From an uncultured Bifidobacteriaceae bacterium (GTDB lineage Bacteria > Verrucomicrobiota > Verrucomicrobiia > Limisphaerales > UBA11358): 64,000 nucleotides of DNA. How positions within the stretch are numbered: position 1 is the first letter of the stretch; each line of letters begins with the position of its first letter. Below the pieces are notes generated by a model. That model made no database searches. It saw nothing but the letters and a program-made list of their open reading frames with translations, and had not been told where the DNA came from. Location: the NCBI GenBank assembly GCA_964655855.1, contig CAZZPE010000004.1:18808-82807 (forward strand). Reading direction: 5' to 3'. This document shows, piece by piece, positions 19,788-53,034 of the stretch. The translations under genes and the position numbers were made by a program.

Positions 19788-20594
19788 CTACATTGCCGGC
19801 AGAAATTCCGACACGCGTTGGATTTTAATCGCCCTGCCGCTGGCGGCGTCAATATCGATCATCGCGCCGTGAAGCATCACCCGGTTTTTGGCCACTTCAA
19901 ACCGCTGCGGCATTCCGGTGAGGAATTTTTTCATCACCGGCTCGATTTCGCGGCCCAGGCAGCCGTCGTGCGGGCCGGTGAATCCGGCGTCGGTGAGATA
20001 CGCCGTGCCGCCGGGCAGAATCTGCTCGTCCGCCGTCTGCACATGCGTGTGCGTGCCCACCACCGCGCTCACCTGCCCGTCCAGCAACCGCCCGAACGCA
20101 ATCTTCTCCGAGGTCGCCTCCGCATGAAAATCCACAAAGATGATCTTTGTCCGCTCGCGCAGCCGCTTCACTTCCTCGCCAGCCAGGAGAAACGGATTTT
20201 CAAGCGGCGGCTGCATGAACGTGCGTCCCTGTGCGTTCAGAACACCAACCAAACTTTGGACTTTGGATTTTGGATTTTGGACTTCAAAAATTCCGCTTCC
20301 CTGCCCCGGCGTTCCGACCGGATAATTGAGCGGACGGAGAAAGCGTTTTTCGTTCGCGAGCAGTTCCGTCACTTCCTTCTGGTCCCACAAATGGTCGCCG
20401 CAGGTGATGACGTCCACGCCGGCGTCGAAGATTTCCCCGGCGATCAGAGGGGTTATGCCGGAACCGCCGGCGGAGTTCTCGCCGTTGGCGATGACAAAAT
20501 CGAGCGCGTGCTGTTCGCGGAGCCTGGGCACAAGGGTTTTGACCGCGCGGCGCCCCGGTTTGCCCACGATGTCGCCGATGAAGAGCAGTTTCAC
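19788..20594 (-). CDS. ymdB: YmdB-family metallophosphoesterase (TIGR00282-like)
   Basis: LFIGDIVGKPGR, NGENSAGG, DFHAEATSEK, GTHTHV. Confidence 0.92.
   Translation of the reverse strand: MKLLFIGDIVGKPGRRAVKTLVPRLREQHALDFVIANGENSAGGSGITPLIAGEIFDAGVDVITCGDHLWDQKEVTELLANEKRFLRPLNYPVGTPGQGSGIFEVQNPKSKVQSLVGVLNAQGRTFMQPPLENPFLLAGEEVKRLRERTKIIFVDFHAEATSEKIAFGRLLDGQVSAVVGTHTHVQTADEQILPGGTAYLTDAGFTGPHDGCLGREIEPVMKKFLTGMPQRFEVAKNRVMLHGAMIDIDAASGRAIKIQRVSEFLPAM
20254..20281. repeat. Four-unit heptamer array (YTTTGGA) in frame in ymdB
   Basis: CTTTGGA CTTTGGA TTTTGGA TTTTGGA; encodes VQNPKSKVQS. Confidence 0.85.
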
Positions 20595-20605
20595 GCGGGA
20601 ATTCT

Positions 20606-20630
20606 AACCACGAAGACACAAAGACACGAA
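20606..20630. repeat. Solo arm of octamer-type repeat
   Basis: AACCACGAAGACACAAAGACACGAA; similar to arms at 41043, 43645 and 53052. Confidence 0.5.
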
Positions 20631-20682
20631 AACAATTTTCCGATCTTGTTCGGCTCTCCCGGACGCCCGCCCGCCTGTTTTG

Positions 20683-21657
20683 CTACACAGCGGCCAGGAT
20701 GCCAACCATCACGGCAATCATCCAAAGCAGCAGCACGGCGCGGGTGCGGCTCAAGCCGGCGCGGACGAGCCGGTGCGAAAGATGGTTGGTGTCGCCAATC
20801 CAGAACGGCTTGTGGTGGAGCGTCCGAAAAACGACCACTTGCGCCAGATCAATCAGCGGAATCGCCAGCACCAGCAGCGGCGAGAGCACGGCCAGCGGAT
20901 GCGGATTTTGTTTGTTGTAGAAATGCGGCAGGATGGCCATGACAGCGAGCAGGTAGCCGACCAGATGACTGCCGGCGTCGCCGAGAAAGGCGCGGGCGTT
21001 CGGAAAATTCCACGGCAGAAATCCGATGAGCGCGCCGCACATCAGAAATCCAACCGTCGCCACGAGGTATTCGCCGTTCGCCGCCGCGATGATGCCGAAC
21101 AGCAGCGCGCCGATCACGCCCAGCCCGGCGCAGAGGCCGTTCATATTGTCCATGAAATTGAAGGCGTTGATGACGGTGAGAATCCAGAAAATCGTGATGG
21201 CGTAGCTGAAAACATCGCTGTGAACAAACAGCGTGATGCGCTTGCAGGCCATGGCGACGGCGACGGCGACGAACAACTGGCCGATGAACTTCGGGAGCGG
21301 CTTCAATTCGCGCTTGTCGTCGAGCCAGCCGAGCAGGGTGATCGCAATCGCCCCGAAGGCGATGGTGGCCAGTTCAAACCCGCGCCGCTCCAGACCGTGC
21401 TGGATGGGTTGCGTCTGGCTCAAGACGTGCGCGCCGGTCTTCAGCAGAATCGCGCCGACGGCGAGCGGCAGCAAAATGCCCGTCAGCACGGCAAGCCCGC
21501 CCGCGAGCGGAACGGGATGGTCGTGAATTTTGCGCCGGCCGGGGTCGTCCACGAGTCTGATGCGCAGACACCATCGGCGCCAGAGCGGGAGCGCGAGCAG
21601 CGTCGTCAGAAACGCGCCCGCAAACGCGGCGAGAAAAAAGTTGAATGGAAACGTCAC
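20683..21657 (-). CDS. MraY/WecA-like polyprenyl-phosphate HexNAc-1-phosphate transferase
   Basis: VDDPGRRKIH..PLAGG, LGWLDD, NAFNFMDNMNGL, AFLGDAGS, DTNHLSHRL. GTG start inferred. Confidence 0.9.
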   Translation of the reverse strand: MTFPFNFFLAAFAGAFLTTLLALPLWRRWCLRIRLVDDPGRRKIHDHPVPLAGGLAVLTGILLPLAVGAILLKTGAHVLSQTQPIQHGLERRGFELATIAFGAIAITLLGWLDDKRELKPLPKFIGQLFVAVAVAMACKRITLFVHSDVFSYAITIFWILTVINAFNFMDNMNGLCAGLGVIGALLFGIIAAANGEYLVATVGFLMCGALIGFLPWNFPNARAFLGDAGSHLVGYLLAVMAILPHFYNKQNPHPLAVLSPLLVLAIPLIDLAQVVVFRTLHHKPFWIGDTNHLSHRLVRAGLSRTRAVLLLWMIAVMVGILAAV

Positions 21658-21659
21658 AA

Positions 21660-22844
21660 TTAAGCCGGTGGCGGAGGCACAGCGGCACCCCCACCGTTCA
21701 ACAGCTTCAAATACAAATTGTAGATGGCATCCACCATTTTTTCGACGGCGAAATTTTCGCGGACGAAATTCTGCCCGGACCGGCCGAGCTTTTCCTGCAA
21801 CGCGGCGTCGCCGGCAAGCTGGAGCAGGCGGTTTTTCAACGTGGTCAAATCGCCGGGCCGGACCAGAAATCCGGTTTTGCCGTCGAGGCAGACTTCGCGC
21901 GCGCCATCGCAATCGTAGGCCACAACCGGTTTTCCGGCGGCGAGCGCCTGCGGCAGGGCGCGCGGCAGTCCTTCGCGCAACGACAAATGAACCAGCGCGT
22001 CCATGATGCCAACGCAGCGCGGCACTTCAGCCGGCGGGATGAGGCCGGTGAAAATGAAATTTTTCTCCAGGCCAAGAGTCTTTGCCAGATTTTCAAAACG
22101 ACCGCGCCATTCGCCATCGCCGACGAGCAGAAATTTGATTTTCGGATTCTGGCGGACGAGTTCCGGCGCGACGGTAAACAAATCGTCATGCCCCTTGAGT
22201 CTGAACAGCCGGGCAATTTTGCCGATGACGAAATCATCCGGCACGATTCCCAGTTTTCTCCGCAGTGCCGCGTCATTTTTCGCGGCGAGAAACGGTTCCA
22301 GCGGAAAGCCGCTGAAGATTTTGGCGTATTGCCCCAGCCGGCCAATCCCAGCGGCGAGGTATTGCTCCTTCATCGCGTCGGCGACGACGACGAAATGCGT
22401 CGTGGATCGGGCGGCGTGTTTTTCGGCGGCGCGGAAGATGAAATTGGCGGCGGCGTTTTGGAAATTGCCGAACGACGGACCATGAACCGTGTGGATGATG
22501 ACCGGAACCCCGGCGCGCCTGGCAGCAAGCCGGCCCAGAATGCCCGCCTTGCCGCTGTGGGTGTGGACGATGTCCGGCTTTTGTTCGCGCAGGATTTTCT
22601 CGAGGTGCCGCAGCGCCAGCCAGTCTTTCAACGGATGAACGGGCCGGACCAACCCGGGGACCATTTCAAGCAGTCCGGGGATTTTTGAAACTTCAGGCTC
22701 CAGCGAGCCTTCGGGGCCGGTCGTCGGGCCGGAGATCAAACAGACTTCGACGCCGGGCTTTTGGCGCAGGCCGAGGACGGTGGCGACGGTGTTCTCCTGA
22801 GCGCCGCCGACGACGAGCCGCGTGATGATGTGGGTGACACGCAT
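21660..22844 (-). CDS. GT4-family glycosyltransferase
   Basis: HTHSGKAG, EGLPRALPQALAAGKPVV (EX7E-like with Q), DGKTGFLV. Confidence 0.9.
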   Translation of the reverse strand: MRVTHIITRLVVGGAQENTVATVLGLRQKPGVEVCLISGPTTGPEGSLEPEVSKIPGLLEMVPGLVRPVHPLKDWLALRHLEKILREQKPDIVHTHSGKAGILGRLAARRAGVPVIIHTVHGPSFGNFQNAAANFIFRAAEKHAARSTTHFVVVADAMKEQYLAAGIGRLGQYAKIFSGFPLEPFLAAKNDAALRRKLGIVPDDFVIGKIARLFRLKGHDDLFTVAPELVRQNPKIKFLLVGDGEWRGRFENLAKTLGLEKNFIFTGLIPPAEVPRCVGIMDALVHLSLREGLPRALPQALAAGKPVVAYDCDGAREVCLDGKTGFLVRPGDLTTLKNRLLQLAGDAALQEKLGRSGQNFVRENFAVEKMVDAIYNLYLKLLNGGGAAVPPPPA

Positions 22845-22860
22845 CGCGCGTCAGGATGAT

Positions 22861-25761
22861 TTACTTTTTGAGTTCGCGCAACCGCTGAAGGACGGTCTGG
22901 GCCTCGCCGGTATTGGTATTGGCGTTGGCGAGGTAGATTTGGTAATTGCGGACGGCCTCGTTGGTGTCGTGCTGGCGCCAGGCAGTTTCGCCCAGGCCGT
23001 AGGCGACCTGGAACGCGTTGCTGGAGATTTGCTGCAGCCGCAGGTAGTCGGCGCGCGCGGCGTCGAGCCGGCCGCTGTCGAGATTGGCGATGGCGCGGTT
23101 GAAGAGCGCGTTGTCGTTGTTGGTCTGGACCGCCAGCACACGGCTCAAGGCGGCGATGGCGGCGTCGTAATTTTTGAGCTGGATGGAAATGTAGCCCCGG
23201 CTGTAAAGCCAGGCCGGGTCGTCGGGCGCGGATTTCAATTTGCGGTCAATGACGCCGAGCGCCCTGTCAAACTGCCCGTTCACCATGTAGGCCTGCGCGG
23301 CGGAGGCGAACAAATCATTGTTGTCCGGGTGGAGGGCCATTTCGGCATCGAGCATTTCCGCGCCGCGCGAGAAATTGGTCTCCTGAAAACAGGCGGCGGC
23401 GGCGAGCACATGCAGCTGGGTTTCGTTGGTTTCGGCCAGGGAGAAATTTTCCGGGTGGGCCAGCGGGTCGCTCAACGCGGCCAGCGCGGGTTTGGGCAGG
23501 CGGGCCATCAGGTAAATCTGGCCGAGCCAGAGGCGCGCGGGCAGATAGTCCGGCGCCAGTTCGCGGACGCGGTCAAACGACGCGACGGCCTGGCGGAAAT
23601 AACTGTTGCCCGCCGCCAGATTGACCCCGATTGCAAAACAAAAACTTGGCTCGTCGAACGGGCCGTTGGCATTCATCAGTTCGCCCCATGTCTGGTATTG
23701 ACCGAACTGATCAATGGTGGCCTTGGTCAAATCCATGGACGCCGGGCGGCCCGCCCGGAGGTTTTGGTTGAAACGGAGATTGTTCCGGGCGACGACGTTT
23801 TCTGGGTTCAACTTTTGCGCGGTGTCGAACTGGACGGCGGCCTTTTCCAGCTCGCCGGCGCGCTGGAGTTCCACGCCCCAGAAATCCAAGCTGCGCGAGT
23901 AAAACAGCCCGGCCAGAATGGCCATCCGGTCCGGTTCGCGCGGCACATGGAATTTGTCCAGCCGGCGCTCGCCCCAGCTCTGCGGGGCGTTTGGGTCGGG
24001 CGGCGCGGCGGCGCGTTCGACGGGCGCCAGCGCCGGCATCGCAGTCTGCGTCCAGAACGTTTCATTTTCCGCGATCAGTTTTTTGTCCGGCGTGGGCGGC
24101 ACCAGCGTGTCCGCCGGCAGCATCTTCATTTTGTAAATCAAGCCGTGCGGCTCCAGGTAAAATTGCTCGAAGTAATAACCGAAGCTCGGATGCAGGTAAT
24201 AAAGGTCATTCGTCCGGGACAGCATGCCCAAAATCTGGATCAGCCCGACCGGATTGAGCGTGTTGGTCTGGGTGGCGGAGACAATTTCCGGCCAGCGTTG
24301 CGGAAAGGTCCGGTGCAAATAGCGGTGGTAGGCGGGCACCACCAGCGACTGCGTTTCGAGCGGCACAAAATCCCGCGCGCGCCCGTCCCGCACCAGCGCC
24401 GACCGCACCAGCGCCAGTTGCTGCGGGTCGTCGCTCAACAAATAGCCGCCCGCCGCAGGCAATTTTTCCTCGACGAGCCGGGTGTAACTCCGGAACGTAT
24501 CGCCGTTCGTGCCGCGGATTTGCGGCGCATTCCGGTAAGCCAGCCCCGCCACCGCCACGATGCACAGCAGCCACACGCCCATGAGGACGGGCCGATCCAG
24601 CGATTGCAACAACTCCGGCGTGCGGCCCCGCTGGCGCACGATTTTTTTTCCAAAAACCAGCAGGAAATAGCCGCTGTAATAACCGATGCTCAACGCCATC
24701 AGGTAGTAAATCGTCAGGCCAAACCCCGTGTGCCGCGGGCTGAACGGCGGATCAAAGACCAGCCAGAGGCAGCCCGCCAGAAAAAGGCCGTGAAGCAGGT
24801 GGAAGATGAAACTCGCCAGCGCCACGCCGATCCGGCTGTTGTCGCCAAAGGAGGTTTTCCAGCGGATTGACAGCACGAGCAGCGGCATCAGGTAGGCCAG
24901 CAGCAAGGACAGGGTTTCCAGATATTGCTGCGGGTGCAGGCCGAAGGTGAGATAGGTTTTCAGGACGTCATACTGCGGCGACAGGTTGAACTTCAAATAC
25001 TGCCAGAAGCTGAACGGCATTTTGTGGGCGGTCACCGCCAGCAACGGCAGCAGCAGGTAAAACAACATGCCCGCCAGCCCGCACACCAGCATCCGCCCCA
25101 GAAAGCGCAAATTGAAAAAGCTCAAGCCGCGCAGCCAGACAATCGCCACCATGAACAGCGGGAAAAAGCCCGTCATCCCCCAGTCGTCCGTCGTCCCCGC
25201 GGCATAAACGAACGCCGCCAGATACAAACGCCACTCGCGTTCGTCCAGCCGGTATTCCAGCAACGACCAGACCACGACCGCGAACAGCAGCAGGTCGAAC
25301 ATCTCGCCCGTCCAGTTGGTCGCGCGCTCCCAAAACGTGAGCTGCAAACCGCAGACCAGCACGGCCAGCAGCGGCGACAGCCACGCGCTGCCGGTCGTCA
25401 GAAATGAAAAAACGCTTTCTTCGCGTTTGCGCTGCGCGTCCGTCCGGTCGTGCGGCAGCAGCGCCACCGACCGCGCCAGCAGGCCGAGCGCCAGCGCCGC
25501 GCACACGGCGGAAAATAAATTCAACGCCAGCGGAATCGCCGGCGCGGGCAGCCAGCGGAACGGACCGGTGACCAGAAAGGTGATAGGACTCAACACCTCC
25601 GGCTGCCACGTCCAGCCGGAAATCCGGGCCACGGCGCCAAGATTGAACAGGGACACCCAGCGGTTCAGCGTCAGCCAGTAGAGCAGCAGCATCCCCGCCG
25701 CCAGCAGCCACGGCAGCCAGCGCGGAACGAAGTTTTTCCGCGGATCAGTTTGCGTTTCCAT
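22861..25761 (-). CDS. Multi-TM membrane protein with C-terminal TPRs, DUF2723/TMEM260-like (divergent)
   Basis: About 10 TM segments with Y..TL, LP....LNLFSA..AA and LTFW..A patterns, then a soluble domain and many TPR repeats. Family assignment is from recalled patterns. Confidence 0.6.
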   Translation of the reverse strand: METQTDPRKNFVPRWLPWLLAAGMLLLYWLTLNRWVSLFNLGAVARISGWTWQPEVLSPITFLVTGPFRWLPAPAIPLALNLFSAVCAALALGLLARSVALLPHDRTDAQRKREESVFSFLTTGSAWLSPLLAVLVCGLQLTFWERATNWTGEMFDLLLFAVVVWSLLEYRLDEREWRLYLAAFVYAAGTTDDWGMTGFFPLFMVAIVWLRGLSFFNLRFLGRMLVCGLAGMLFYLLLPLLAVTAHKMPFSFWQYLKFNLSPQYDVLKTYLTFGLHPQQYLETLSLLLAYLMPLLVLSIRWKTSFGDNSRIGVALASFIFHLLHGLFLAGCLWLVFDPPFSPRHTGFGLTIYYLMALSIGYYSGYFLLVFGKKIVRQRGRTPELLQSLDRPVLMGVWLLCIVAVAGLAYRNAPQIRGTNGDTFRSYTRLVEEKLPAAGGYLLSDDPQQLALVRSALVRDGRARDFVPLETQSLVVPAYHRYLHRTFPQRWPEIVSATQTNTLNPVGLIQILGMLSRTNDLYYLHPSFGYYFEQFYLEPHGLIYKMKMLPADTLVPPTPDKKLIAENETFWTQTAMPALAPVERAAAPPDPNAPQSWGERRLDKFHVPREPDRMAILAGLFYSRSLDFWGVELQRAGELEKAAVQFDTAQKLNPENVVARNNLRFNQNLRAGRPASMDLTKATIDQFGQYQTWGELMNANGPFDEPSFCFAIGVNLAAGNSYFRQAVASFDRVRELAPDYLPARLWLGQIYLMARLPKPALAALSDPLAHPENFSLAETNETQLHVLAAAACFQETNFSRGAEMLDAEMALHPDNNDLFASAAQAYMVNGQFDRALGVIDRKLKSAPDDPAWLYSRGYISIQLKNYDAAIAALSRVLAVQTNNDNALFNRAIANLDSGRLDAARADYLRLQQISSNAFQVAYGLGETAWRQHDTNEAVRNYQIYLANANTNTGEAQTVLQRLRELKK

Positions 25762-25792
25762 TGGTGTTGGTTGTGACAGTTGAATCCATATT

Positions 25793-26941: not shown

Positions 26942-27054
26942 GCGGGAAAGCTAGAACGCCGGGCGCAAACAAAAAAGATTTTTTAAGCAATTAACGCAAA
27001 ACGCATCGCCGGGAAATCAGCCGCTGGCGAAGATGAACTTCGATTGCGAGACCG

Positions 27055-32944: not shown

Positions 32945-32985
32945 GTTGAATCGCGGAATCGGCTGGCTGCCCTTGACGATTCAAC
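32945..32985. repeat. Degenerate octamer inverted array (GTTGAATC ... GATTCAAC)
   Basis: GTTGAATC GCGGAATC ... GATTCAAC; overlaps the stop of the endonuclease III-like gene. Same family as 47199-47272. Confidence 0.55.
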
Positions 32986-33691
32986 GTGGCGGTAGCAGCG
33001 GCTTCAGCGGGCATTCATCGCAGCGCGGCGCGCGCGTCCGGCAATAATGCTTCCCCACCATCACCAGTTGCGCGTGATAATCCCGCCAGTAATCCAGCCG
33101 CGCCGCGCCGGTCTTTTGATCCAGCGCCGACTCGCAAAGCGATTTCAACTCGTCGTAGCCGCGAGCCAACTTTGAACCCCGAACCTTGAAACTTGAATCC
33201 GGCTTCCATCCGTGCCTTTCAAAAATCCGCTTCGTGTAAGCGTCAATCACAAAGCTGCAATGGCCGCCGGCATAAAGCGCCATGCTGTCCGCCGTCTCCG
33301 GCCCGATGCCGTTGACGGCCAGCAACCTTTCGCGCACGGCGGAAGTTTCGCCCGCGAAAAGCCTCTTCAAACCGCCGTCAAATTGCTCAACCAGCACCCG
33401 CAGAAACGACCGCAGCCGCCGCGCCTTGACGTTGAAATAACCGGCGGGCCGGATCAACTCCGCCAGCTTCACCTCCGGCAACACGAACATTTTTTCCGGT
33501 TCCAGCGCGCGCGCGGTTTTGAGATTGGCGATGGCGCGCTCGACGTTCGACCACGCGGTGTTTTGCGTCAGAATCGCGCCGACGCAGACTTCAAACGGCG
33601 TTTCGCCCGGCCACCAATGCTGGTGTCCAAACCGCGCGCGCATGAGTTCGTAGGCGCGACGCAGGTCGGCTTTGGTTCTCTTGGCAATCAT
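32981..33691 (-). CDS. Endonuclease III-related HhH-GPD protein with C-terminal Fe-S motif
   Basis: VGAILTQNTAWSNVERAI, GIGPETADS, HAQLV.VGK.YC..RAPRC.ECPL. Confidence 0.88.
   Translation of the reverse strand: MIAKRTKADLRRAYELMRARFGHQHWWPGETPFEVCVGAILTQNTAWSNVERAIANLKTARALEPEKMFVLPEVKLAELIRPAGYFNVKARRLRSFLRVLVEQFDGGLKRLFAGETSAVRERLLAVNGIGPETADSMALYAGGHCSFVIDAYTKRIFERHGWKPDSSFKVRGSKLARGYDELKSLCESALDQKTGAARLDYWRDYHAQLVMVGKHYCRTRAPRCDECPLKPLLPPR
33170..33197. repeat. Four-unit heptamer array (NYTTGAA) in frame in the endonuclease III-like gene
   Basis: CTTTGAA CCCCGAA CCTTGAA ACTTGAA; encodes SSFKVRGSKL. Confidence 0.75.
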
Positions 33692-33701
33692 CGCCGGAGG
33701 T

Positions 33702-33852
33702 TTTTAACGCAAAGACACGCCTGCCGCAACGAAGATGGAAGATGGAGAATGGAAGATCGCCGGAAAAAATGCGCGCCGGGTTTTGCCATTCTCCACCTTC
33801 CATCCTCTATTTTCGCTTGCTGGATTGCAGCGCGGGCGTCTTTGCGTTAAAA
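33702..33852. mobile_element. MITE-like nested element: 15-bp terminal inverted repeats enclosing an inverted heptamer doublet
   Basis: TTTTAACGCAAAGAC (33702-33716) and GTCTTTGCGTTAAAA (33838-33852) are perfect reverse complements. Internal GATGGAR-like array (33734-33760) and CCATCCT-like array (33786-33813). Confidence 0.6.
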
Positions 33853-34632
33853 ATGTGCGTCATGTTCGCCTCGCTGATTTTTGATTTGCTGAACGTCGGT
33901 TACCTGATCCACAACATCTGGCTGTGGCCAGTTGTCGCGTTTCTGGTCTGGATGTTCGTTGACGCGATCCGGCGGCGGGAATGGCTTTGGGCGATTTTTA
34001 TTTTGATCGGCTGGGGCATCTCGGCGATTTTGTATTTCTTCTTCGTCTATCGCGCCAGCGCGCCGTCGGTCACGCGCGGCTTCGAGCTGCCCGGCGCGCA
34101 GAGCCGCAAACGCATCAAGGAACTTCAGGCGCAAATCCATCACCTCGACAACGCCTATCACCATTTCCAGCTCGGCGACGTTTACTTCCAGCGCGGCAAA
34201 CTGGCCGAGGCCGAACAATGCTACCGCGCCGCGCTTCAGCGCGATGCCACCGACATTGACACCCGCGCGCATCTGGGCCAATGCCTCGTCCGCCTGAACC
34301 GTCCCGCCGAGGCGCGGCCGCTCCTCGAAAGCGTCATGAACGAGAAGCCCGAACACGATTACGGCCACACCATGATGGCGCTGGCCGAAACGCTCACCGC
34401 GCTCGGCGAGACCGACAACGCGATTCAATACTGGCAGCACATCACGCAAAACCATTCCTACCCGCGCGCCAAGGTTCAACTCGCCGAGCTTTACCTCGCC
34501 AAAAAACAGCCGGAACTGGCGCGGGCGGAATTGAAGGACATCGTCAGCGACGACCAGCACGCGCCCGCCTTCCAGCGCAAGCGCGACCGCGTCTGGGTCC
34601 GCCGCGCAAAAAGCCTGATGTCGCGGCTGTAG
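33853..34632 (+). CDS. Membrane-anchored TPR protein (N-terminal PLDc_N-like TM hairpin)
   Basis: WMFVDAIRRREWLWAIFIL TM motif, then TPRs (LGDVYFQRGKLAEAEQCYRAAL). Start 33853 or 33862. Confidence 0.8.
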   Translation: MCVMFASLIFDLLNVGYLIHNIWLWPVVAFLVWMFVDAIRRREWLWAIFILIGWGISAILYFFFVYRASAPSVTRGFELPGAQSRKRIKELQAQIHHLDNAYHHFQLGDVYFQRGKLAEAEQCYRAALQRDATDIDTRAHLGQCLVRLNRPAEARPLLESVMNEKPEHDYGHTMMALAETLTALGETDNAIQYWQHITQNHSYPRAKVQLAELYLAKKQPELARAELKDIVSDDQHAPAFQRKRDRVWVRRAKSLMSRL

Positions 34633-34682: not shown

Positions 34683-34729
34683 AATTCATTTTGATTCGCG
34701 TTCCCGGCAAAATTCCCTATCCTTTGAGC

Positions 34730-36322
34730 GTGCCAAATCTCATCGCCATCGTCGGACGACCGAATGTCGGCAAGTCCGCATTGTTCAACCGCATCATCAA
34801 GAAGCGGATTGCAATTGTGCATGACCAGCCGGGCGTCACGCGCGACCGCGTCACCGCCGAGGCTGAGTGGGGCGGAAAATCCTTCACGCTGGTGGACACC
34901 GGCGGCATCGGCCTGTTGCGCCGCGAAAAATCCGACGACATCATCATCAAGGCCGCGCTCGAACAGGTGGAAATGGCGATTGAAGCCGCCAGCGCCATCA
35001 TCCTGGTCGTCAATGTGCAGGAAGGCGTCGTGCCGCTGGACCGCGAGGTGGCGCAACATCTCCACAAGAGCGGCAAGCCAATCCTGGTGGCGGTCAACAA
35101 GGTGGACACCGAACGCGCGGAAAAAGGCGCGGACGAATTTGCCGCGCTCGGCTTCGACAAGATTTTCCCCGTCAGCGCCATTCACGGCGAAGGCATCCAG
35201 AATCTGATGAACGCAGCGGTGGCCCTGTTGCCAGTCCAAAGTTCAAAGTCCGAAGTTCAAAGTCAAGAAGCTGCCGGCGATGACTCGGCTGATTCCGCAA
35301 TCCGCAATCCGCAATCCGCAATTTTGAAGCTGGCCATCGTCGGCCGGCCGAACGTCGGCAAGTCGTCCATCATCAACGCGCTCACGCAATCCAAGCGCGT
35401 CATCGTCTCGCCGATTCCCGGCACGACGCGCGACGCGATTGACGTGCCGTTCGAGGTCGAGGCCGACGGCATCCGGCAGAAATACATCCTGATTGACACC
35501 GCCGGGATGCGGAAGACGCGGCGCGTGGACGATTCGATCGAGTATTTCAGCGTGAAACGCGCCGAGGATTCCATCGAGCGCAGCGACATCACGGTGCTGG
35601 TGATTGACGCCGAGGCCGGCATCACCGAGCAGGACAAAAAGATCGCCGACGTGATCGTCGAAAGCCGCAAGGCGTGCATCATCGTCGTCAACAAATGGGA
35701 TTTGTTCGAGGCGGAGGTTCTCAAGGCGCGCGAGGATGAAATCGGGCGGCGCAACCGGAAGGAGCGCACCGAGGGCCAGGCAAAGCAACTGACCACGCTC
35801 GGCGAGTTCGCCGAGTGGGTGCAGCGGAAACTGTTTTTCCTCGATTACGCGCCGGTGATTTTCACGTCCGCCAAGTCCGGCTTTCATCTGGAGCGGTTGC
35901 TGGAGGCCATCCGCTATGTCGCCGCGCAGTTGCAGCAGAAAATCCCGACGGCGATTTTGAACCGCACCATCAACGACGCCGTCGAGCGCCGCCAGCCGAT
36001 CAGCGCGATGGGCCACCGGCTGAAATTTTTCTACGCGACGCAGGTGCGGCAGGCGCCGCCGACCTTTCTGCTGTTCGTCAACCGCGACGAATTGTTTTCC
36101 GACCAATACAAAAAGCATCTGGCGGGCGAGCTGCGCACGGCGTTCGGCTTCGAAGGCTGCCCGATCGTGCTGGTGCCAAAGGCGCGCCCGAAGACGATTG
36201 AGCCGGTGCGGAAATTCAAGCCGGAGCACAAAAAACAAACGGGAAAAGCGGGAAGGATTGAGGCCCATCGGAAGGCGCAGCACGAAAGATATTCCCGCGT
36301 TCGCGGAAAGAAATCGCAATGA
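34730..36322 (+). CDS. der: Ribosome biogenesis GTPase Der/EngA
   Basis: Two GRPNVGKS G1 motifs, DTGG/DTAG, NKVD/NKWD, KH-like C-terminal domain. GTG start inferred. Confidence 0.96.
   Translation: MPNLIAIVGRPNVGKSALFNRIIKKRIAIVHDQPGVTRDRVTAEAEWGGKSFTLVDTGGIGLLRREKSDDIIIKAALEQVEMAIEAASAIILVVNVQEGVVPLDREVAQHLHKSGKPILVAVNKVDTERAEKGADEFAALGFDKIFPVSAIHGEGIQNLMNAAVALLPVQSSKSEVQSQEAAGDDSADSAIRNPQSAILKLAIVGRPNVGKSSIINALTQSKRVIVSPIPGTTRDAIDVPFEVEADGIRQKYILIDTAGMRKTRRVDDSIEYFSVKRAEDSIERSDITVLVIDAEAGITEQDKKIADVIVESRKACIIVVNKWDLFEAEVLKAREDEIGRRNRKERTEGQAKQLTTLGEFAEWVQRKLFFLDYAPVIFTSAKSGFHLERLLEAIRYVAAQLQQKIPTAILNRTINDAVERRQPISAMGHRLKFFYATQVRQAPPTFLLFVNRDELFSDQYKKHLAGELRTAFGFEGCPIVLVPKARPKTIEPVRKFKPEHKKQTGKAGRIEAHRKAQHERYSRVRGKKSQ
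35234..35321. repeat. Two four-unit heptamer arrays in the Der GD1-GD2 linker
   Basis: GTCCAAA GTTCAAA GTCCGAA GTTCAAA (35234-35261) and TCCGCAA x4 (35294-35321). Confidence 0.9.
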
Positions 36323-40479: not shown

Positions 40480-40485
40480 CGAAAA

Positions 40486-42063
40486 ATGCGCCCGCTGATT
40501 CACGAAATCTCCACCGCGCACACGCCCGAATCGCTCGTCGGGCAATTGCGGATTGCGGGTTGTGGATTGCGGAATGTCGTTTTGCTTCGCACGTCGCAAT
40601 TTGATTCACCTTCGGCGCGCTACTCGTTTGTCGCTGCAAATCCATTCCTGACGTTCCGCTCCTTCGGCTCGCGTTGCGAGATAACTCCGCACTCCGCATT
40701 CCGCGCTCCGCACTTCGGAAATCCGTGGCATCTTCTCGGCAGCCTGATGTCGCGCTATGAGCTGCTGGACGAAATTGACCTGCCCTTTCCGCTCGGCGGC
40801 TGCTTTGGTTTCTGGGGCTACGACCTGAAAAACTTCACCGAACCGAAACTCCCGCGCCGCGCCGTCAACGATTTGGAATTGCCAGACTGCCACGCCGGTT
40901 TTTATGACAGTCTGGTCGTCTTCGACCATCAGCTCGGAAAAGTTTTCATCGTCTCAACCGGCTTGAACGCCGACGGCTCGCGCAGCGAAAAGCGGGCGAA
41001 CGAGCAAATGGAATTTTGGAACCTGTTGATTTCAGGAAAATTGCCACCGAGACACAGAGTCGCGAAGAAACATTCCCCGCTTCCGCGCCTCTGCGGCTCC
41101 GTGGCCCAGATCATCTCAAATCTGTCACGCGACGAATTTATTTCCAAGGTTCAGCGCGCCCAGCGATACATCCGCGCCGGCGACATTTACCAGGTCAACC
41201 TGTCGCAGCGGCTGACGGTGGATTTTTGTGGTAGGGCGGGCAGTCCCCTGCCCGCCGCCGGACGAACGCAGGCCCACGAACGGCGCGCACGGAGTGACGC
41301 GCCCTACCTTCTGGCAAATTCGGACGGCTGGGAATTGTTCCAAAAATTAACCGCCGTTTCCCCAGCTCCGTTTTCGGCATTTCTCGACTGCGGCGATTTT
41401 CAGATTGCATCGTCCTCGCCGGAACAATTTTTACGCATGAGTGGTTCGCAAATCGTCACACGTCCGATCAAGGGCACGCGCCCGCGCGACCCCGACCCGA
41501 CACGCGACGCGCAGCTCGCCTACGAACTCCAGACCAGCACGAAGGAACTCGCCGAGCTGGTGATGATCACCGATCTGCTGCGAAATGATTTGGGCAAGGG
41601 CTGCGAATTCGGCTCCGTGCAAACACCGGAAATCGCCAAGCTGGAAAAATTCGCGCAGGTGCAGCACCTCGTTTCCACCGTCGAGGGTCGCCTGCGGAAC
41701 GACGTGACGCATTTCACCTCGTTCGCGGCAGCTTTTCCCGGCGGCAGCATCACCGGCGCGCCGAAATACCGCGCGATGGAAATCATTGACGAACTGGAGC
41801 CGGTTTCGCGCGGACCTTACTGCGGCGCGATCGGCTTCCTCGGCTTCAACCGCGAGAGCCAGTTGAGCATCACCATCCGCGCAGCGATCTGCCAAGACGG
41901 CCTCGCGCATTTCAACGTTGGCGCGGGCATCGTGGCGGATTCCAATCCCGAGTCGGAATACGAGGAAACGCTGGCGAAGGCCGCCGGCTTTCTGGCGGCA
42001 TTGAGTAGCAGCCGACGTGAGGAGGCTCCGACTAAAATTCCATCGAGCGATTTTGAAGTTTGA
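40486..42063 (+). CDS. pabB: Aminodeoxychorismate synthase component I (PabB/TrpE family) with several repeat-derived inserts
   Basis: GDIYQVNLSQ, SSPEQFL, PIKGTRPR, FPGGSITGAPK, VGAGIVADS; pabC-like gene nearby. Confidence 0.85.
   Translation: MRPLIHEISTAHTPESLVGQLRIAGCGLRNVVLLRTSQFDSPSARYSFVAANPFLTFRSFGSRCEITPHSAFRAPHFGNPWHLLGSLMSRYELLDEIDLPFPLGGCFGFWGYDLKNFTEPKLPRRAVNDLELPDCHAGFYDSLVVFDHQLGKVFIVSTGLNADGSRSEKRANEQMEFWNLLISGKLPPRHRVAKKHSPLPRLCGSVAQIISNLSRDEFISKVQRAQRYIRAGDIYQVNLSQRLTVDFCGRAGSPLPAAGRTQAHERRARSDAPYLLANSDGWELFQKLTAVSPAPFSAFLDCGDFQIASSSPEQFLRMSGSQIVTRPIKGTRPRDPDPTRDAQLAYELQTSTKELAELVMITDLLRNDLGKGCEFGSVQTPEIAKLEKFAQVQHLVSTVEGRLRNDVTHFTSFAAAFPGGSITGAPKYRAMEIIDELEPVSRGPYCGAIGFLGFNRESQLSITIRAAICQDGLAHFNVGAGIVADSNPESEYEETLAKAAGFLAALSSSRREEAPTKIPSSDFEV
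40546..40573. repeat. Four-unit heptamer array (TTGCGGA) in pabB
   Basis: TTGCGGA TTGCGGG TTGTGGA TTGCGGA; reverse complement of the der TCCGCAA array. Confidence 0.85.
40685..40712. repeat. Four-unit heptamer array (YTCCGCA) in pabB
   Basis: CTCCGCA CTCCGCA TTCCGCG CTCCGCA; encodes TPHSAFRAPH. Confidence 0.85.
41043..41105. repeat. Octamer-type inverted repeat in pabB
   Basis: GCCACCGAGACACAGAG ... CTCTGCGGCTCCGTGGC, imperfect inverted arms. Confidence 0.7.
41230..41308. repeat. GTAG-type REP-like doublet (family B) in pabB
   Basis: GGTAGGGCGGGCAGTCCCCTGCCCGCC and GGCGCGCACGGAGTGACGCGCCCTACC. Confidence 0.9.
42005..42028. repeat. Single family-A REP-like unit in the pabB 3' end
   Basis: GTAGCAGCCGACGTGAGGAGGCTC. 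Confidence 0.75.
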
Positions 42064-43588: not shown

Positions 43589-43644
43589 TCACCTATAAAT
43601 GCCGGTTTTTGGCGAAACCGGACAATCTTTTTGCAAAATAATTC

Positions 43645-43722
43645 AACGCAAAGACGCAAAGGCGCAAAGCCGAAGAGGTAAAAACATGACATTGCGCCTT
43701 TGCGTCTTTGTGTCTTTGCGTT
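43645..43722. repeat. Octamer inverted array (CGCAAAGA ... TCTTTGCG)
   Basis: AACGCAAAGACGCAAAGGCGCAAAG ... CTTTGCGTCTTTGTGTCTTTGCGTT; same termini as 33702-33852. Confidence 0.85.
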
Positions 43723-43732
43723 AAAAAAAGGC

Positions 43733-44572: not shown

Positions 44573-44674
44573 TTTTAATAATTGTTTTAATTAGAATCAA
44601 TCAAATCATCCCATGCGCCCTTGAAAACGGCCCTTCCGGGGCATAGTTTGCCTTGGAAAACGGCGGAGGTGATT

Positions 44675-45376: not shown

Positions 45377-45430
45377 TTCCGCCGCGACTTCAAACTTGGG
45401 TTGGCGGCGGGTCTGTGGCTTAATCCCATC

Positions 45431-46507: not shown

Positions 46508-46592
46508 GCGACTACAAAAATCGCGCCAAATTATCATTGCCCGCCGGCGTGCTTTGCTTTAGCTGTTAAGCAAACTTAACCAAAGGAAATTT

Positions 46593-47195: not shown

Positions 47196-47198
47196 GCC

Positions 47199-47272
47199 GT
47201 TGAATTGTTGAATCGTTAAATCGGCCAACGTGCTCATTCCGATGCAACGATTCACGATTTAACAATTCACGA
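47199..47272. repeat. Octamer inverted array (GTTGAATC ... GATTYAAC)
   Basis: GTTGAATT GTTGAATC GTTAAATC ... GATGCAAC GATTCAC GATTTAAC AATTCAC; fills the lemA-M48 gap. Confidence 0.8.
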
Positions 47273-47280
47273 GCAACGCC

Positions 47281-49254: not shown

Positions 49255-49277
49255 GAAACGCGGGTTGCGGGAACAAA

Positions 49278-50552
49278 TCACTCAAACCGCACGGGCTGCC
49301 CGGTGGTGGCCAGCGCCGCGTGCCAGAGCGGGCCGTCCGGATCCACGCGCTTCTGCCGTTTTGTCAGCATTCTGACCGGCACATGGATGAACTGGTCGTG
49401 GAGCAGCCCGATCATCAGGCCGGTTTTTCCGGCCATCGCGGCATGGACGGCGTTGCGGGCGTATTGGTCGCACAGGATGGCATCCTCCGAATCGGCGCGG
49501 ACGCTCCGGATGATGTAGCTTGGCTCCAGATAACGCATCACCATGGGAATCTTTTCCGCGCGGAAATAAGACTCGATTTTTTCACGGAGAAACGGCCCGA
49601 TGTCCTTGAGCCTGACGTTTCCCGAGGCGTCGCGTTCCTCGCCGTTGTTCTCCAGCAGATCCTGCCCGGCGCCTTCCGCCACCACGATGACCGCGTGCGC
49701 CCGCTTCAACGTGCGCTTCTTCAGCGCGTTAAGAAATCCGCCGGGGCCTTCCAGCTTGAACGGGATTTCCGGAATCAGGCAGAAATTCACCTCCTGGCTG
49801 GACACCGTGGCTTCCGTGGCGATGAATCCGGCATGCCGGCCCATCAGCTTGACCAGGGCGATGCCGTTCCGGACGCTGTGGACTTCCGTGTGGGCGCAGA
49901 CAATGACCCGGGCCGCTTCCTGCACCGCGGTCTGGTAGCCGAAAGTGCGCGAAACGTAAAGCACATCGTTGTCCACGGTCTTGGGAATGCCCACGACTGC
50001 CAGGGCGTGTCCGCGTCTTTGCGCCTCGCGGAAAAGTTCATAGCCGCCGCGCTGCGTGCCGTCGCCGCCGACGACCAGCAGGATGCTGACGCCGCGTTTG
50101 ATGAGATTATCCACCGCGACCCGGATGTCCACCGGACCGCGCGAAGTGCCCAGCACCGTGCCGCCTTCCTGGTGAATGTCGTCCACAAAATCGGCCGTGA
50201 GCTGGAGCGGTTCCAGTCCGTGCGAGGGGTCAAGCCCCTGATAGCCGTCGCGGAAGCCCAGCACCTGTTTCACGCCGTAAGTGTGGTGCAGTTCCAGAAA
50301 GGCGGAGCGGATGACGGTGTTCAGGCCGGGACAAAGCCCGCCGCAGGTCACGATGCCAACCCGGGTTTTTCTGGAATCAAAAAAAAGTTTCGCGCGCGGT
50401 CCGGCTAGCTCGAATAGAAAATCCTCCGGCGGCCGGACGCCGGGTTTCCGGATGATGTTCAGCGGCAGCCGCGCGTCATCGCCGACATGGTGCGGAATCG
50501 GCGACGCGAAGCGGGCCTTGCCAAGCCGGGTGATGTTTGCGGCATTATTCAC
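49278..50552 (-). CDS. pfkA: ATP-dependent 6-phosphofructokinase (group II type)
   Basis: TCGGLCPGLN, GGTVLGTSRG, GGDGT (Gly indicates ATP), PKTVDND, MGRHAG. Confidence 0.9.
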   Translation of the reverse strand: MNNAANITRLGKARFASPIPHHVGDDARLPLNIIRKPGVRPPEDFLFELAGPRAKLFFDSRKTRVGIVTCGGLCPGLNTVIRSAFLELHHTYGVKQVLGFRDGYQGLDPSHGLEPLQLTADFVDDIHQEGGTVLGTSRGPVDIRVAVDNLIKRGVSILLVVGGDGTQRGGYELFREAQRRGHALAVVGIPKTVDNDVLYVSRTFGYQTAVQEAARVIVCAHTEVHSVRNGIALVKLMGRHAGFIATEATVSSQEVNFCLIPEIPFKLEGPGGFLNALKKRTLKRAHAVIVVAEGAGQDLLENNGEERDASGNVRLKDIGPFLREKIESYFRAEKIPMVMRYLEPSYIIRSVRADSEDAILCDQYARNAVHAAMAGKTGLMIGLLHDQFIHVPVRMLTKRQKRVDPDGPLWHAALATTGQPVRFE

Positions 50553-53034
50553 GCACGACCGCTTTCAACTGGGCCTTGAACGCCTCCACAATTTTCCCGT
50601 GCACCGCGCCCACTTCGGCGTCGGTCAGTGTTTTTTCCGGCGAGCGGTAGGTGAACGCGTAAGCCAGGCTCTTCTGCCCTTCCGGCACGTGCTTGCCGTG
50701 AAACACGTCAAACAGCTCCACTGCCTCAAGATTCGCGGGCCTGGTTTTTTTGACGGCCTGCAAAACCGCCTCGTGCGTCGTCGCCTCCGGCACCAGCATC
50801 GCCACGTCGCGGCGGATGGACGGGAATTGCGGCAGCGGCTTGAACGACCGGGCCGGATTGCGCCGCGCGAGCAGTTGATCCAGATTCAGCTCGGCGAGAA
50901 AAACCGCGCCGCGCAAATCATATTTTTTCACCAGCGCGGGTGAAAGCCGGCCCATTTCGCCGAGCGGCAATTTGCCCCCCAGCGCAACCGTCGCGGATTC
51001 CAGAAACATCGCCGTGCTTTCGGCCCGCCGGGCGAACGCCACTCCGCGAACACCGAAATGTTCGAGAAATTCCTCGACCACCCCTTTCAGGTCAAACGCG
51101 TCAAACGTGGCGTTGCGCTCCTCGCCGCTCCAGAAGGGCAAGGCGCGCTGGCCGGTGATGGCGACGGCCACGCGGCGTTCTTCCTTCACCGCGCCGTTTT
51201 GCAAACTGAACACGCGCCCGATTTCGAACAGCGCCACGTCGCCATTTTTCCGGCTGACATTGTGCCGCAGCGAATGAATCAATCCCGGCAGCAAACTCGG
51301 CCGGAGCACGTCCATGTCGCTGCTCAACGGATTGGCCAACATCACGGATTCCGCATTCCGCATTCCGAACTCCGCGCTGGAAATGAGCGTCTGCCCCTGC
51401 GCCTCGTTCAAGCCGAGTCCGGTGAGGATGCGGCGCGCCTCGGCAATCTGGTCATAAACTGAATCAAAGGCGTTCGAGCCGATCGCGCCGCGCGGCGGCG
51501 TGGCGGGGATTTTCTCCACGCCGTAAAGCCGTTCGACATCCTCGATCAAATCCACCGCGCGCTTCAAATCCACCCGCCACGACGGAATCTTGAACGTGCA
51601 GACGCCGGGCGACTGCTCGGTCACCGCCAGCCCCAGCTTGGTGAGAAACGAAACCTGATCCGAATGTGAAATGCCGACGCCCAGCAAATCCTTCGACTTT
51701 GAAAAATGCAGGGTGATCTGCTTCGGCTCGGCGGGCTTCGGATAAACGTCCACCACGCCTTCGGCCAGCCGGCCACCGGCGGTTTCCAAAATCAACTGCG
51801 CCGCGCGCCGGCTCGCCCAGTCGCAAATATTCACGTCCGCACCGCGCTCGTAGCGGTAGCTGGCGTCGGTGCGCAGGCCCAGCAGCTTGCTCGTGCGGCG
51901 GATGTTCGTCGGCTTGAAATACGCGCTCTCGATGAGCACGTCCACGGTCGAGTTGTTGATCTCCGTGTTCGCGCCGCCCATGACGCCGGCAAGGGCGATG
52001 CCTTTGGTTTCGTCCGCGATCAAAAGCATTTCGCTCGTGAGCGTGCGCTCCTGATTGTCGAGCGTCTTGAATTTTTCCCAGGCGGCGGCGCGACGGACGA
52101 CGATCGTTGGAATGTGGTAGCCGACGTCAGTCGGCTCTGATTTGATTTGAGCGGACTCACGTCCGCTGCCACGAGAGATCAAATGATAATCAAACGCGTG
52201 GAGCGGCTGGCCGATTTCCAGCATGACGTAATTCGTCACGTCCACGACGTTGCTGATGCTGCGGATGCCGACTTTTTCCAGCGCCGAGCGCAGCCAGTCG
52301 GGGCTTGGCCCGATTTTCACGCCTTTGATGACGCGCGCGGTGTAACGCGGACAAAGCTCCGAGTCTTCAATTTTTACCGAAACCAAGTCAGTCGTTTTTC
52401 CGCCGATGGAAACGAGTTTGATTTCTGGAACTTTCAATGCATTCCCGGTGACCGCCGCGATTTCACGCGCGATGCCGATGACGCTGTTCAAATCCGGCCG
52501 GTTCGGCGTGACTTCCAAATCATAGACCACGTCGCCGCCGCTGCGGCCGAGATATTCGCCAAACGGCTGACCGACCTTCGCGTCTTCGCGCAAAATGAGC
52601 AGACCATCTTCCTTTTTGTGGCCGATCGCTTCGGGATCAATGAGCAATTCTTCATGCGAGCACATCATGCCGTGCGATTCCACGCCGCGGATTTTGCCGA
52701 CCTTGATGGTGAACGGTTCCTTGTCGCCGGCCTTCAACGGCAGCGACGCGCCGGGCAGGATGAGCGGCACTTTGTCGCCGGCCTTGAAATTCTGCGCGCC
52801 GCAGACGATCTGCCGTTCGCCCGTGCCGTCGTTGACGCGGCAGACGGAGAGTTTGTCGGCGTTGGGGTGCTTGTCGCGCGTGACGACCTGCGCCACGACG
52901 ATGCCGTCGAACGCGGCGGCGATCTTCTGCACGCCCTCGACTTCGAGGCCGAGCATAGTGAGCCGCTCGGTCAACTCCTCGGGCGACCAGTTGAAATCAA
53001 CGTATTGTTTGAGCCAGTTGAGAGTTACTTTCAT
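50545..53034 (-). CDS. pheT: Phenylalanine-tRNA ligase beta subunit
   Basis: MKVTLNWL, HPNADKL, TPNRPD, GQPLHAFD, DLIEDVERL, FDX-ACB C-terminus. Confidence 0.97.
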   Translation of the reverse strand: MKVTLNWLKQYVDFNWSPEELTERLTMLGLEVEGVQKIAAAFDGIVVAQVVTRDKHPNADKLSVCRVNDGTGERQIVCGAQNFKAGDKVPLILPGASLPLKAGDKEPFTIKVGKIRGVESHGMMCSHEELLIDPEAIGHKKEDGLLILREDAKVGQPFGEYLGRSGGDVVYDLEVTPNRPDLNSVIGIAREIAAVTGNALKVPEIKLVSIGGKTTDLVSVKIEDSELCPRYTARVIKGVKIGPSPDWLRSALEKVGIRSISNVVDVTNYVMLEIGQPLHAFDYHLISRGSGRESAQIKSEPTDVGYHIPTIVVRRAAAWEKFKTLDNQERTLTSEMLLIADETKGIALAGVMGGANTEINNSTVDVLIESAYFKPTNIRRTSKLLGLRTDASYRYERGADVNICDWASRRAAQLILETAGGRLAEGVVDVYPKPAEPKQITLHFSKSKDLLGVGISHSDQVSFLTKLGLAVTEQSPGVCTFKIPSWRVDLKRAVDLIEDVERLYGVEKIPATPPRGAIGSNAFDSVYDQIAEARRILTGLGLNEAQGQTLISSAEFGMRNAESVMLANPLSSDMDVLRPSLLPGLIHSLRHNVSRKNGDVALFEIGRVFSLQNGAVKEERRVAVAITGQRALPFWSGEERNATFDAFDLKGVVEEFLEHFGVRGVAFARRAESTAMFLESATVALGGKLPLGEMGRLSPALVKKYDLRGAVFLAELNLDQLLARRNPARSFKPLPQFPSIRRDVAMLVPEATTHEAVLQAVKKTRPANLEAVELFDVFHGKHVPEGQKSLAYAFTYRSPEKTLTDAEVGAVHGKIVEAFKAQLKAVVRE
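51349..51376. repeat. Four-unit heptamer array (YTCCGCA) in pheT
   Basis: TTCCGCA TTCCGCA TTCCGAA CTCCGCG; encodes AEFGMRNAE. Confidence 0.85.
52114..52172. repeat. Family-A REP-like doublet in pheT
   Basis: GTGGTAGCCGACGTCAGTCGGCTC and GAGCGGACTCACGTCCGCTGCCAC. Confidence 0.9.

Follow-up and report, generated by a model that had tools for sequence, protein, structure and literature searches.

Heptanucleotide repeats arranged head to tail are not new to bacteria: short tandemly repeated repetitive (STRR) sequences with seven-nucleotide units were reportedly described in heterocystous cyanobacteria by Mazel and colleagues in 1990, and STRRs are said to have been found in the RNase P RNA gene as well, in work attributed to Vioque in 1997. 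The families STRR1 to STRR3 have the unit consensus CCCCAGT, TTGGTCA and CAACAGT. Other short repeats in or near genes include the contingency simple sequence repeats (SSRs) of Haemophilus and Neisseria, long and count-hypervariable arrays of tetra- or heptanucleotides that switch genes on and off by frameshift, and the Rickettsia palindromic elements (RPEs), which Ogata and colleagues reportedly presented in 2000 as selfish DNA lying in frame within protein-coding genes. An over-representation of heptamer SSRs in bacteria has been reported together with the idea of polymerase-footprint slippage (PMC4692102, citing Mrazek 2007), and arrays of GGGAATC or GGGGAYT units in Xanthomonas and Nostoc, which are intergenic and G-rich, have been read as G-quadruplex formers (Rehm et al., 2015, PMC4692102). 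Here we describe heptamer arrays in a 64,000-nucleotide stretch of contig CAZZPE010000004.1 (the window), where seven of them lie in frame within housekeeping genes at about four units each. Comparison with array-free orthologues suggests that, in genes, these four units are one native unit and three added ones.

Heptamer arrays in the window and at orthologous sites

The seven intragenic arrays listed by a first-pass annotation, made from the sequence without database searches, were all recovered by Tandem Repeats Finder (TRF) and direct reading:

20253 to 20284, minus strand: array in the ymdB gene (19788-20594); TRF unit ACTTTGG, 4.6 copies, 92% matches; on the coding strand 4.6 copies of TCCAAAR, encoding EVQNPKSKVQS.
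33170 to 33197, minus strand: degenerate array in the HhH-GPD (endonuclease III-like, nth) gene (32981-33691); on the coding strand, by direct reading, TTCAAGT, TTCAAGG, TTCGGGG and TTCAAAG, four TTCRRGN or CTTTGAA-like units.
35233 to 35264, plus strand: der array 1 (gene at about 34691-36322); TRF unit AGTCCAA/AGTTCAA, 4.6 copies.
35294 to 35322, plus strand: der array 2; TRF unit TCCGCAA, 4.1 copies, 100% perfect, encoding SAIRNPQSAI directly ahead of the G1 motif of GTPase domain 2.
40545 to 40573, plus strand: site 1 array of the pabB-like gene (40486-42063); TRF unit (TTGCGGA)-like, 4.1 copies, encoding LRIAGCGLR, with TYC on the antisense strand.
40684 to 40714, plus strand: site 2 array of the pabB-like gene; TRF unit CTCCGCA, 4.4 copies, near-complementary to the site 1 array and 110 nt downstream of it.
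51348 to 51375, minus strand: array in pheT (50545-53034, minus strand); TRF 4.0 copies, on the plus strand 4.0 copies of TTCCGCA, encoding AEFGMRNAES, a peptide that belongs to a variable loop in the catalytic-like module.

The period is 7 and the count 4.0-4.6 copies (28-32 nt, 76-100% matches by TRF), the nth array being too degenerate for TRF, so that its units were counted by eye. The assignment of four units to each array therefore stands as a preference for four and not as an exact count. Chance cannot account for the seven arrays, since among 200 windows simulated under a Markov-1 model a single array reached 3.9 units or more (about 0.005 per window). No comparable arrays with periods of 5 to 11 other than 7 were found in the window, and a search of the whole window against Rfam returned zero family matches.

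All seven arrays lie inside open reading frames (ORFs) with strong Pfam matches, contain no stop codons and are read through. These matches are to YmdB (2.7e-103; a metallophosphoesterase, the YmdB-family phosphoesterase), HhH-GPD (6e-14), MMR_HSR1 twice plus KH_dom-like for Der, Chorismate_bind (2.2e-83) for the PabB/TrpE-like product and the PheT domains. When aligned to the Bacillus subtilis YmdB structure (PDB 4B2O), the ymdB array falls at a gap between two strands, which places its peptide in a predicted beta-hairpin loop. Both der arrays are located in the linker joining the two GTPase domains, as the G1 motif of domain 2, KLAIVGRPNVGKS, follows array 2; this also rules out a position upstream of the true start of der. 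The linker is hypervariable across 84 orthologues.

The orthologous sites indicate how such arrays come about. Array-free orthologues already carry a proto-repeat of 9-12 nt at the site (a heptamer plus 2-5 repeated bases, that is, 1.3-1.7 units), in arrayed orthologues the site exceeds this by 21 nt (three units, seven codons), which gives 4.3-4.7 units, and a second step of +21 nt leads to 7.7 units; these steps rest on coding sites, clean intergenic orthologue comparisons being too few. At the ymdB site, distant and some close orthologues without an array have a 60-nt segment reading GAA/CAA RTC CGC AAT CTG CCG, in which one TCCGCAA is followed by two repeated bases, whereas the segment measures 81 nt (+21) in twelve arrayed orthologues and 75 or 69 nt in others. 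Three loci, L019, L022 and L023 (comparison loci are cited by L number), carry the seed RTCCGCAAT, and all arrays at this site begin in one phase after GAA. In nth, two loci (L134, L148) carry AGTCCAAAGTC (TGG AGT CCA AAG TCA; 1.6 units) in a segment of 96 nt, and four others (L003, L092, L143, L144) have 4.6 units in 117 nt (+21). Array-free orthologues at pabB site 1 read CAATTGCGCGG, and the 285 nt of L144 (ACGCAATCCGG) compare with 306 nt in L111, again +21, with the TCCGCAA array oppositely oriented. The series at pabB site 2 runs from 12 nt and 1.7 units (L088) through 33 nt and 4.7 units (about 20 loci) to 53 nt and 7.7 units (L118), and at a further site L133 (16 nt, 2.3 units) and L140 (37 nt, 5.3 units) are exactly 21 nt apart. 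Many close relatives have no array at the ymdB, nth and pabB sites.

Taken over all sites, the net length differences between orthologues are +21, +42, +15 or 0 nt, all of them multiples of 3 and mostly 21. This does not agree with the insertion of a fixed module of about 28 bp, as the first-pass annotation had proposed, nor does the proto-unit at the empty sites. Judged by these alignments, the in-gene count of four is made up of a native unit and three more (21 nt, 7 codons). The objection that selection on the reading frame should favour multiples of three overlooks that it is the units added that count: three units of 7 nt make 21 nt, or 7 codons, so that the frame argument applies to the addition and not to the total.

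The 54-nt segment at pabB site 2 of L133 and L140 holds no heptamer array; its +42-nt insert consists of two short GC-rich hairpins, GCCGCGAATGTGAATTCGCGGAC and CCGCCGTTGGACAGCGGCGG, and is a different sort of in-frame insert at the same hotspot. In addition, pheT matches are longer in L162 (2622 nt), L164 (3643 nt) and L169 (2901 nt) than the 2490 nt of the window, which suggests sizeable insertions within pheT.

Arrays at the same site in different species have different units, and yet each array is uniform. At the ymdB site the units include GTCCAAA, ATTCAAC, GTTCGGA, ATCCGAA, ATCCGCA and ATTCGGA, with several arrays 100% perfect although the YmdB proteins are 13-30% diverged (perfect arrays of differing units in L001, L002, L004 and L014), and a mixed array in L007 (three TCCGAAA, one TCCGAAG, one TCCAAAG) has the composition of stepwise intermediates. 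Likewise, the pheT site carries CGAATGC (a perfect array of 4.6 units in L162), CGAAGTC and GAAGCCA, with arrays of other units than that of the window in L162, L164 and L169, and pabB site 2 carries CTCCGCA, CTCCCAA, CCAGACG, CACTCGA, GTCACTC and CACGCAT. Such differences between species, and the lack of a conserved motif, argue against the protein-binding module suggested earlier. Strain contigs that diverge by about 3% and 6% agree in array length at all three of nth, pabB and ymdB, and the sole change is a unit variant at 20275, a comparison made on Logan contigs, which break at arrays (as in der) and can miss rare variants. Together, uniform but differing units in each species and constant length among strains imply that homogenisation is quicker than speciation but slower than the divergence of strains. 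It could proceed by cycling between short and long in-frame states, both of which are present in relatives, or by conversion within the array.

Copy number, unit sequence and inverted pairs across genomes

The window and 160 related loci (2.53 Mb) were surveyed with TRF for arrays of at least 2.8 copies. Genes were called with a codon-usage model trained on the same related loci; this caller placed at least one coding array (pabB of L118) as intergenic, and the split between coding and non-coding arrays was redone with an ORF-span criterion. For a pooled set, extra loci of other phyla and viral contigs were added under a stricter ORF-span criterion, excluding the arrays by which loci had been picked. 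Tract lengths were taken from scored segments and TRF, and histograms of perfect runs were dropped because one mismatch splits an array.

Heptamers are by far the commonest tandem period in the 2.53 Mb, with 179 arrays (71 per Mb), of which 132 are in genes, 7 at gene edges and 40 intergenic. Period 8 follows with 56 arrays (21 genic, 8 at gene edges, 27 intergenic), and the corresponding counts are 16, 0 and 11 for period 6 (27 arrays) and 14, 0 and 16 for period 9. The window itself holds eight heptamer arrays in 64 kb, compared with 16 per Mb in unselected other phyla. Among coding arrays of the Limisphaerales, 6, 21, 88, 19, 0 and 1 have 2, 3, 4, 5, 6 and 7 units, respectively, and in the pooled coding set (n=300) 3 to 7 units are found in 56, 188, 39, 4 and 3 arrays. 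The coding peak is the sharper one: three-unit arrays make up 16% of coding and 39% of intergenic arrays, and under strict segmentation tracts of 4-5 units and tracts of 2.4-2.9 units stand in a ratio of about 1.1 within genes, which falls to about 0.4 in intergenic DNA. In genic and intergenic arrays alike, lengths cluster near 31 nt, with a dip at 21-24 nt. A few TCCGCAA arrays are much longer, from 8 to at least 16 units (L283 7737-7820, L312 3-60 and one 112-nt tract among L241-L360), some of them at contig ends; long arrays may break assemblies, and the short-array mode may thus be slightly inflated.

Unit sequences are diverse, with 79 classes among the 179 arrays. A TYC once per unit on a single strand, which the first-pass annotation had taken as a shared core, is indeed present in all seven intragenic arrays of the window (on the coding strand in five, antisense in pabB site 1 and pheT) and is not general: TYC occurs in 58% of coding arrays and in 40% of random genomic heptamers, and this modest enrichment led us to reject it as a motif defining the family. 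TCC is found in 45% of coding arrays, compared with 15% of intergenic or non-coding ones and 23% of random heptamers, and the restriction of the excess to coding arrays fits selection for Ser (TCC) and Pro (CCN) codons. We conclude that the TYC/TCC core is a by-product of coding constraints and not a binding motif. In line with this, array peptides are enriched relative to the proteome in Ser (3.2-fold), Pro (2.0-fold) and Gln (2.0-fold), depleted in Leu, Ala, Gly, Met, Tyr and Trp, and 21% hydrophobic as against 34%. As 7 and 3 share no common factor, each stretch of 21 nt presents the unit in all three frames during translation, and a coding array must therefore be stop-free. Among exact TCCGCAA arrays, 78 lie on the coding strand and 19 on the opposite one; of 125 such tracts, 105 measure 29-34 nt, and an ORF of 750 nt or more encloses 78% of them.

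Many arrays have an inverted counterpart, a reverse-complementary partner within 200 nt being found for 37% of arrays and 2% of controls. The der linker contains a complementary array pair in 36 of 81 orthologues, with arms that co-vary between species (AGTCCAC, GTCGAGA, AGTCAGT, GAGTGAC and others). Array 1 of the window der gene occupies the left-arm position of this pair; the window pair is not complementary (best 12/21), its second arm being the perfect TCCGCAA tract. The pabB pair was considered as a conserved hairpin and rejected, as the units at the two sites are not kept complementary in orthologues, and the single arrays of ymdB, nth and pheT have no inverted partner. Two palindromes also lie between genes of the window:

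33701 to 33853, no strand assigned: nested palindromic element, intergenic, with outer arms TTTTTAACGCAAAGAC.../...GTCTTTGCGTTAAAAA (TRF, inverted repeats).
43642 to 43725, no strand assigned: intergenic hairpin whose arms are the octamer arrays (ACGCAAAG)3 and (CTTTGCGT)3 (TRF).

The inner arms of the element at 33701-33853 are an eighth heptamer array, 3.9 copies of GAAGATG (33731-33757), which is missing from the earlier list of arrays, and its complement (33786-33807). Its inverted repeats I2 and I5 are 83% and 91% complementary, and its DNA folds at -46.9 kcal/mol (z = -5.7), while the hairpin at 43642-43725 (inverted repeats I1 and I3, 87-95% complementary) folds at -42.7 kcal/mol. Both share the terminal motif TTAACGCAAAGAC / GTCTTTGCGTTAA, which is carried by those four arm positions only, and an almost identical octamer-array hairpin lies 3' of ymdB in a different species (L029, 10793-10880). 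The two palindromes and the L029 copy could belong to a small family resembling repetitive extragenic palindromes (REP-like), with arms that would expand symmetrically. REP and REPIN elements are extragenic palindromes of 20-40 nt that come in many copies and go with a RAYT transposase. The longest-ORF start of the TPR-repeat ORF at 33742-34632 falls, at 33742, inside the first palindrome, and the true start of this protein is probably downstream of 33853.

As to the host, the best orthologues of YmdB, Der and PheT belong to metagenome-assembled genomes (MAGs) of Verrucomicrobiota subdivision 3 (Limisphaerales/Pedosphaerales), with up to 87-88% amino-acid identity, and these relatives, together with a G+C content of 59.7%, rule out a cyanobacterium. 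Several loci whose genes are 65-87% identical to those of the window (L001, L013, L018, L031, L038, L012, L044 and others) are titled Bifidobacteriaceae, Akkermansia muciniphila, Acidiferrales or Methylomirabilota, and such records are probably mislabelled or mis-binned MAGs. Wetland and peat metagenomes hold DNA near-identical to the window, and in these runs word depth is 10-15 times that of neighbouring bins at 35172-35505 (the perfect TCCGCAA array of der and the G1 motif; about 15-fold) and 41184-41517 (inside pabB), so that many other loci or organisms in the samples must share those words. Elsewhere in the window, a 12-nt tandem duplication (CTTGAGCGTTTC, two copies) at 62285-62308 recurs at 62924-62947, 639 nt apart, which suggests a duplicated segment or paralogous genes.

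Origin and persistence of the arrays

The account that we hold to be moderately probable is that these are heptanucleotide simple-sequence arrays, the verrucomicrobial counterpart of STRRs and of the long heptamer-rich SSRs known from many bacteria, carried in frame in loops and linkers of housekeeping proteins, and that they combine a local origin with filtering at the protein level and, within genes, three-unit steps. Arrays would originate locally at a seed, by microhomology-primed reiterated slippage or template switching; only stop-free units coding for hydrophilic Ser/Pro/Gln-rich peptides in tolerant loops would persist, giving the apparent TCC/TYC core, and in genes only changes of three units would survive, fixing the count at one plus three. 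Units could be made uniform by repeated contraction and re-expansion or by conversion within the array, inverted pairs could be held complementary by template switching between their arms, and the arrays as such would be tolerated mutational by-products rather than binding sites. Several observations weigh against this account. Three units gained in one step from a seed of 1.5 units are hard to obtain by ordinary slippage, and with 19% of coding arrays at 3.x and 13% at 5.x units the counts are looser than a strict 1+3. The pheT arrays show no net insertion, arrayed (window, L162, L164, L169) and non-arrayed (L167, L168) sequences being equal in length, the latter without clear periodicity and with 18 of 27 bases fitting a perfect array codon for codon, so that they may be decayed arrays, as they look like. 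Arrays outside any long ORF peak at four too (16, 28, 4, 0 and 4 arrays of 3 to 7 units, n=54); the peak anticipated by the first-pass annotation is hence present in coding (88 in the Limisphaerales set, 188/300 pooled) and non-coding (28/54) arrays, and the intergenic GGGAATC arrays of Xanthomonas also mostly have four units (PMC4692102), which means that frame selection is not the sole cause of the mode. Moreover, exact (TCCGCAA)4 is found in at least 120 genome contigs of Acidobacteriota, Planctomycetota, Gemmatimonadota, Chloroflexota, Bacteroidota, Verrucomicrobiota and others, its tracts prefer the start and end phase (C)AATCCGC...GCAAT(C), and in viral contigs it occurs in 30 stretches compared with 2 and 2 for two stop-free permutations of the same composition (about 15-fold), (TCCAAAG)4 occurring in 7 stretches. 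Finally, identical units recur within a locus in 6.2% of cases and between loci in 1.5% (about fourfold). Much of this evidence favours an alternative that we regard as possible, if doubtful, in which the generating mechanism sets the size: a burst of repair or replication would synthesise some 21 nt with heptamer periodicity where a microhomology provides a seed, either through rounds of snap-back or of primer realignment catalysed by a repair polymerase, or with an array of the same unit elsewhere in the genome as the template. This comes near the templated insertion that the first-pass annotation had suggested. Bursts of about 21 nt would be frame-neutral, as they amount to 7 codons, and their products could accumulate in genes. 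Under this alternative one would expect what is seen in the non-coding arrays, with none at six units and a minor class at seven, in the 21-24 nt dip and the mode of about 31 nt both inside and between genes, and in the same mode in unrelated phyla and Xanthomonas; the preference for TCCGCAA in a given phase, the sharing of units within a genome and the clustering of arrays in particular genomes (about 155 non-TCCGCAA heptamer arrays per Mb where a genome had been selected by a single TCCGCAA array, compared with 16 per Mb in unselected phyla) point the same way, as does the perfect TCCGCAA of der array 2 in the window where the closest relatives have a complementary hairpin arm. However, direct sequence comparison of the window arrays gave no donor-recipient pair with shared internal variants, units can be derived stepwise from the native seed (in ymdB, from TCCGCAA through TCCGAAA and TCCGAAG to TCCAAAG, as the mixed L007 array illustrates), unit diversity is high, the non-coding sample is small and may contain unrecognised short genes, and no candidate enzyme has been identified. 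It is rather unlikely that a sequence-preferring DNA-synthesis or repair activity, shared by numerous phyla of soil and fresh water and by their phages, produces heptamer tracts of about 21 nt at microhomology seeds, favours TCCGCAA-like units and often mirrors them onto a hairpin arm; were this so, it would be a built-in generator of in-frame seven-residue loop insertions and would explain the bacterial heptamer excess.

That the arrays are functional modules under selection, whether as regularly spaced sites at which a protein binds DNA or RNA or as paired hairpins acting on mRNA (processing, pausing) or DNA (cruciforms, REP-like), seems improbable. Their persistence at the same site in many species with repeated re-homogenisation, the excess of inverted partners, the co-varying arms in the der linker and the recurrence in another species of intergenic array-arm hairpins with the same unit would all suit such a role. 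Against it, there is no conserved motif, units at orthologous sites differing among the 79 classes; orientation relative to the gene is mixed, the array is missing from many close relatives at ymdB, nth and pabB, the der pair of the window is not complementary, and the pabB pair is not kept as a pair. Template switching within quasi-palindromes would produce co-varying arms just as well, and the peptide composition points to a filter acting on the protein. It is highly implausible that the arrays are chance matches, assembly artefacts or contingency repeats of the phase-variable type: heptanucleotide contingency repeats do exist in some pathogens, but the arrays here are read in frame within essential housekeeping genes, their lengths at nth, pabB and ymdB do not vary between related strains, the simulations yield far too few arrays per window, and the arrays recur across independent MAGs and sequencing runs. 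On balance, the local origin of STRR-like arrays with filtering at the protein level is the account we retain; if the mechanism were to set the size, this would point to an undescribed mutational process.

Comparison with known repeat families

The excess of heptamers has been known since the STRRs (1990) and the SSR survey of 2007, and both the period of seven and the count of four have so far been without explanation. What is new here is that the arrays are mostly intragenic and translated, essential genes included, that the in-gene four is one native and three added units, and that one orthologous site is homogenised to different units in each species; a literature search found no paper on heptamer arrays of Verrucomicrobia or on in-frame heptamer arrays. 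In practical terms, the arrays are a recurrent source of seven-residue loop insertions and of breaks in alignments and in MAG assemblies. Their interest is moderate and rests mainly on the four-unit mode outside genes and on the unit preference that extends across phyla.

Among described systems, the arrays of Xanthomonas and Nostoc (Rehm et al., 2015) are similar in their period of 7, in having mostly four units, in often forming convergent inverted pairs and in varying in length and sequence at syntenic sites between species. They differ in that the units found here are without G-runs and mostly genic, and are nevertheless four-peaked: no GGG run is present on either strand of the window arrays except in single degenerate units, whereas a G-quadruplex takes at least four tracts of three or more G. 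The requirement for a G-quadruplex therefore cannot explain the four-unit mode in general, and this mode argues against that explanation for Xanthomonas. With the contingency SSRs the arrays have in common short tandem units in or near genes and a presumed origin by slippage, and they differ in being short, always in frame in essential genes and constant in length among strains, as the equal lengths at nth, pabB and ymdB in strains about 3-6% diverged indicate (Logan contigs, which may miss rare variants). The RPEs also lie in frame in housekeeping genes as short repeats that encode tolerated surface-loop peptides, and some of the present arrays are palindromic in the same manner (the der-linker pairs of orthologues). 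RPEs, however, measure 100-150 bp, have a conserved consensus and are inserted whole, whereas the arrays are 28-32 nt long and appear locally grown; with 79 unit classes they share no consensus of the kind seen in RPE-like elements or miniature inverted-repeat transposable elements, and only a subset (37%) is paired.

The closest likeness is to the STRRs, which also form short tandem arrays of 7-nt units in many dispersed copies, with few unit families dominant per genome, and occupy permissive sites of conserved genes with units that differ between strains. The arrays described here belong with heptanucleotide SSRs and STRR-like repeats in the broad sense, given their head-to-tail 7-nt copies, their many dispersed occurrences and the excess of period 7. 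They are not STRRs in the strict sense: no unit in the window matches the STRR1-3 consensus, the units (TCCGCAA, TCCAAAG and others) being unrelated to it, they are mostly translated, and they lie in a verrucomicrobium of 60% GC with Limisphaerales/Pedosphaerales relatives. As the host is not a cyanobacterium, the STRR label is an analogy only, and we know of no description of STRRs that includes a step of +21 nt from a native seed. The arrays thus form a heptanucleotide repeat family akin to the STRRs that protein loops tolerate, a known kind of repeat that is new in its host, in its units and in its coding location.

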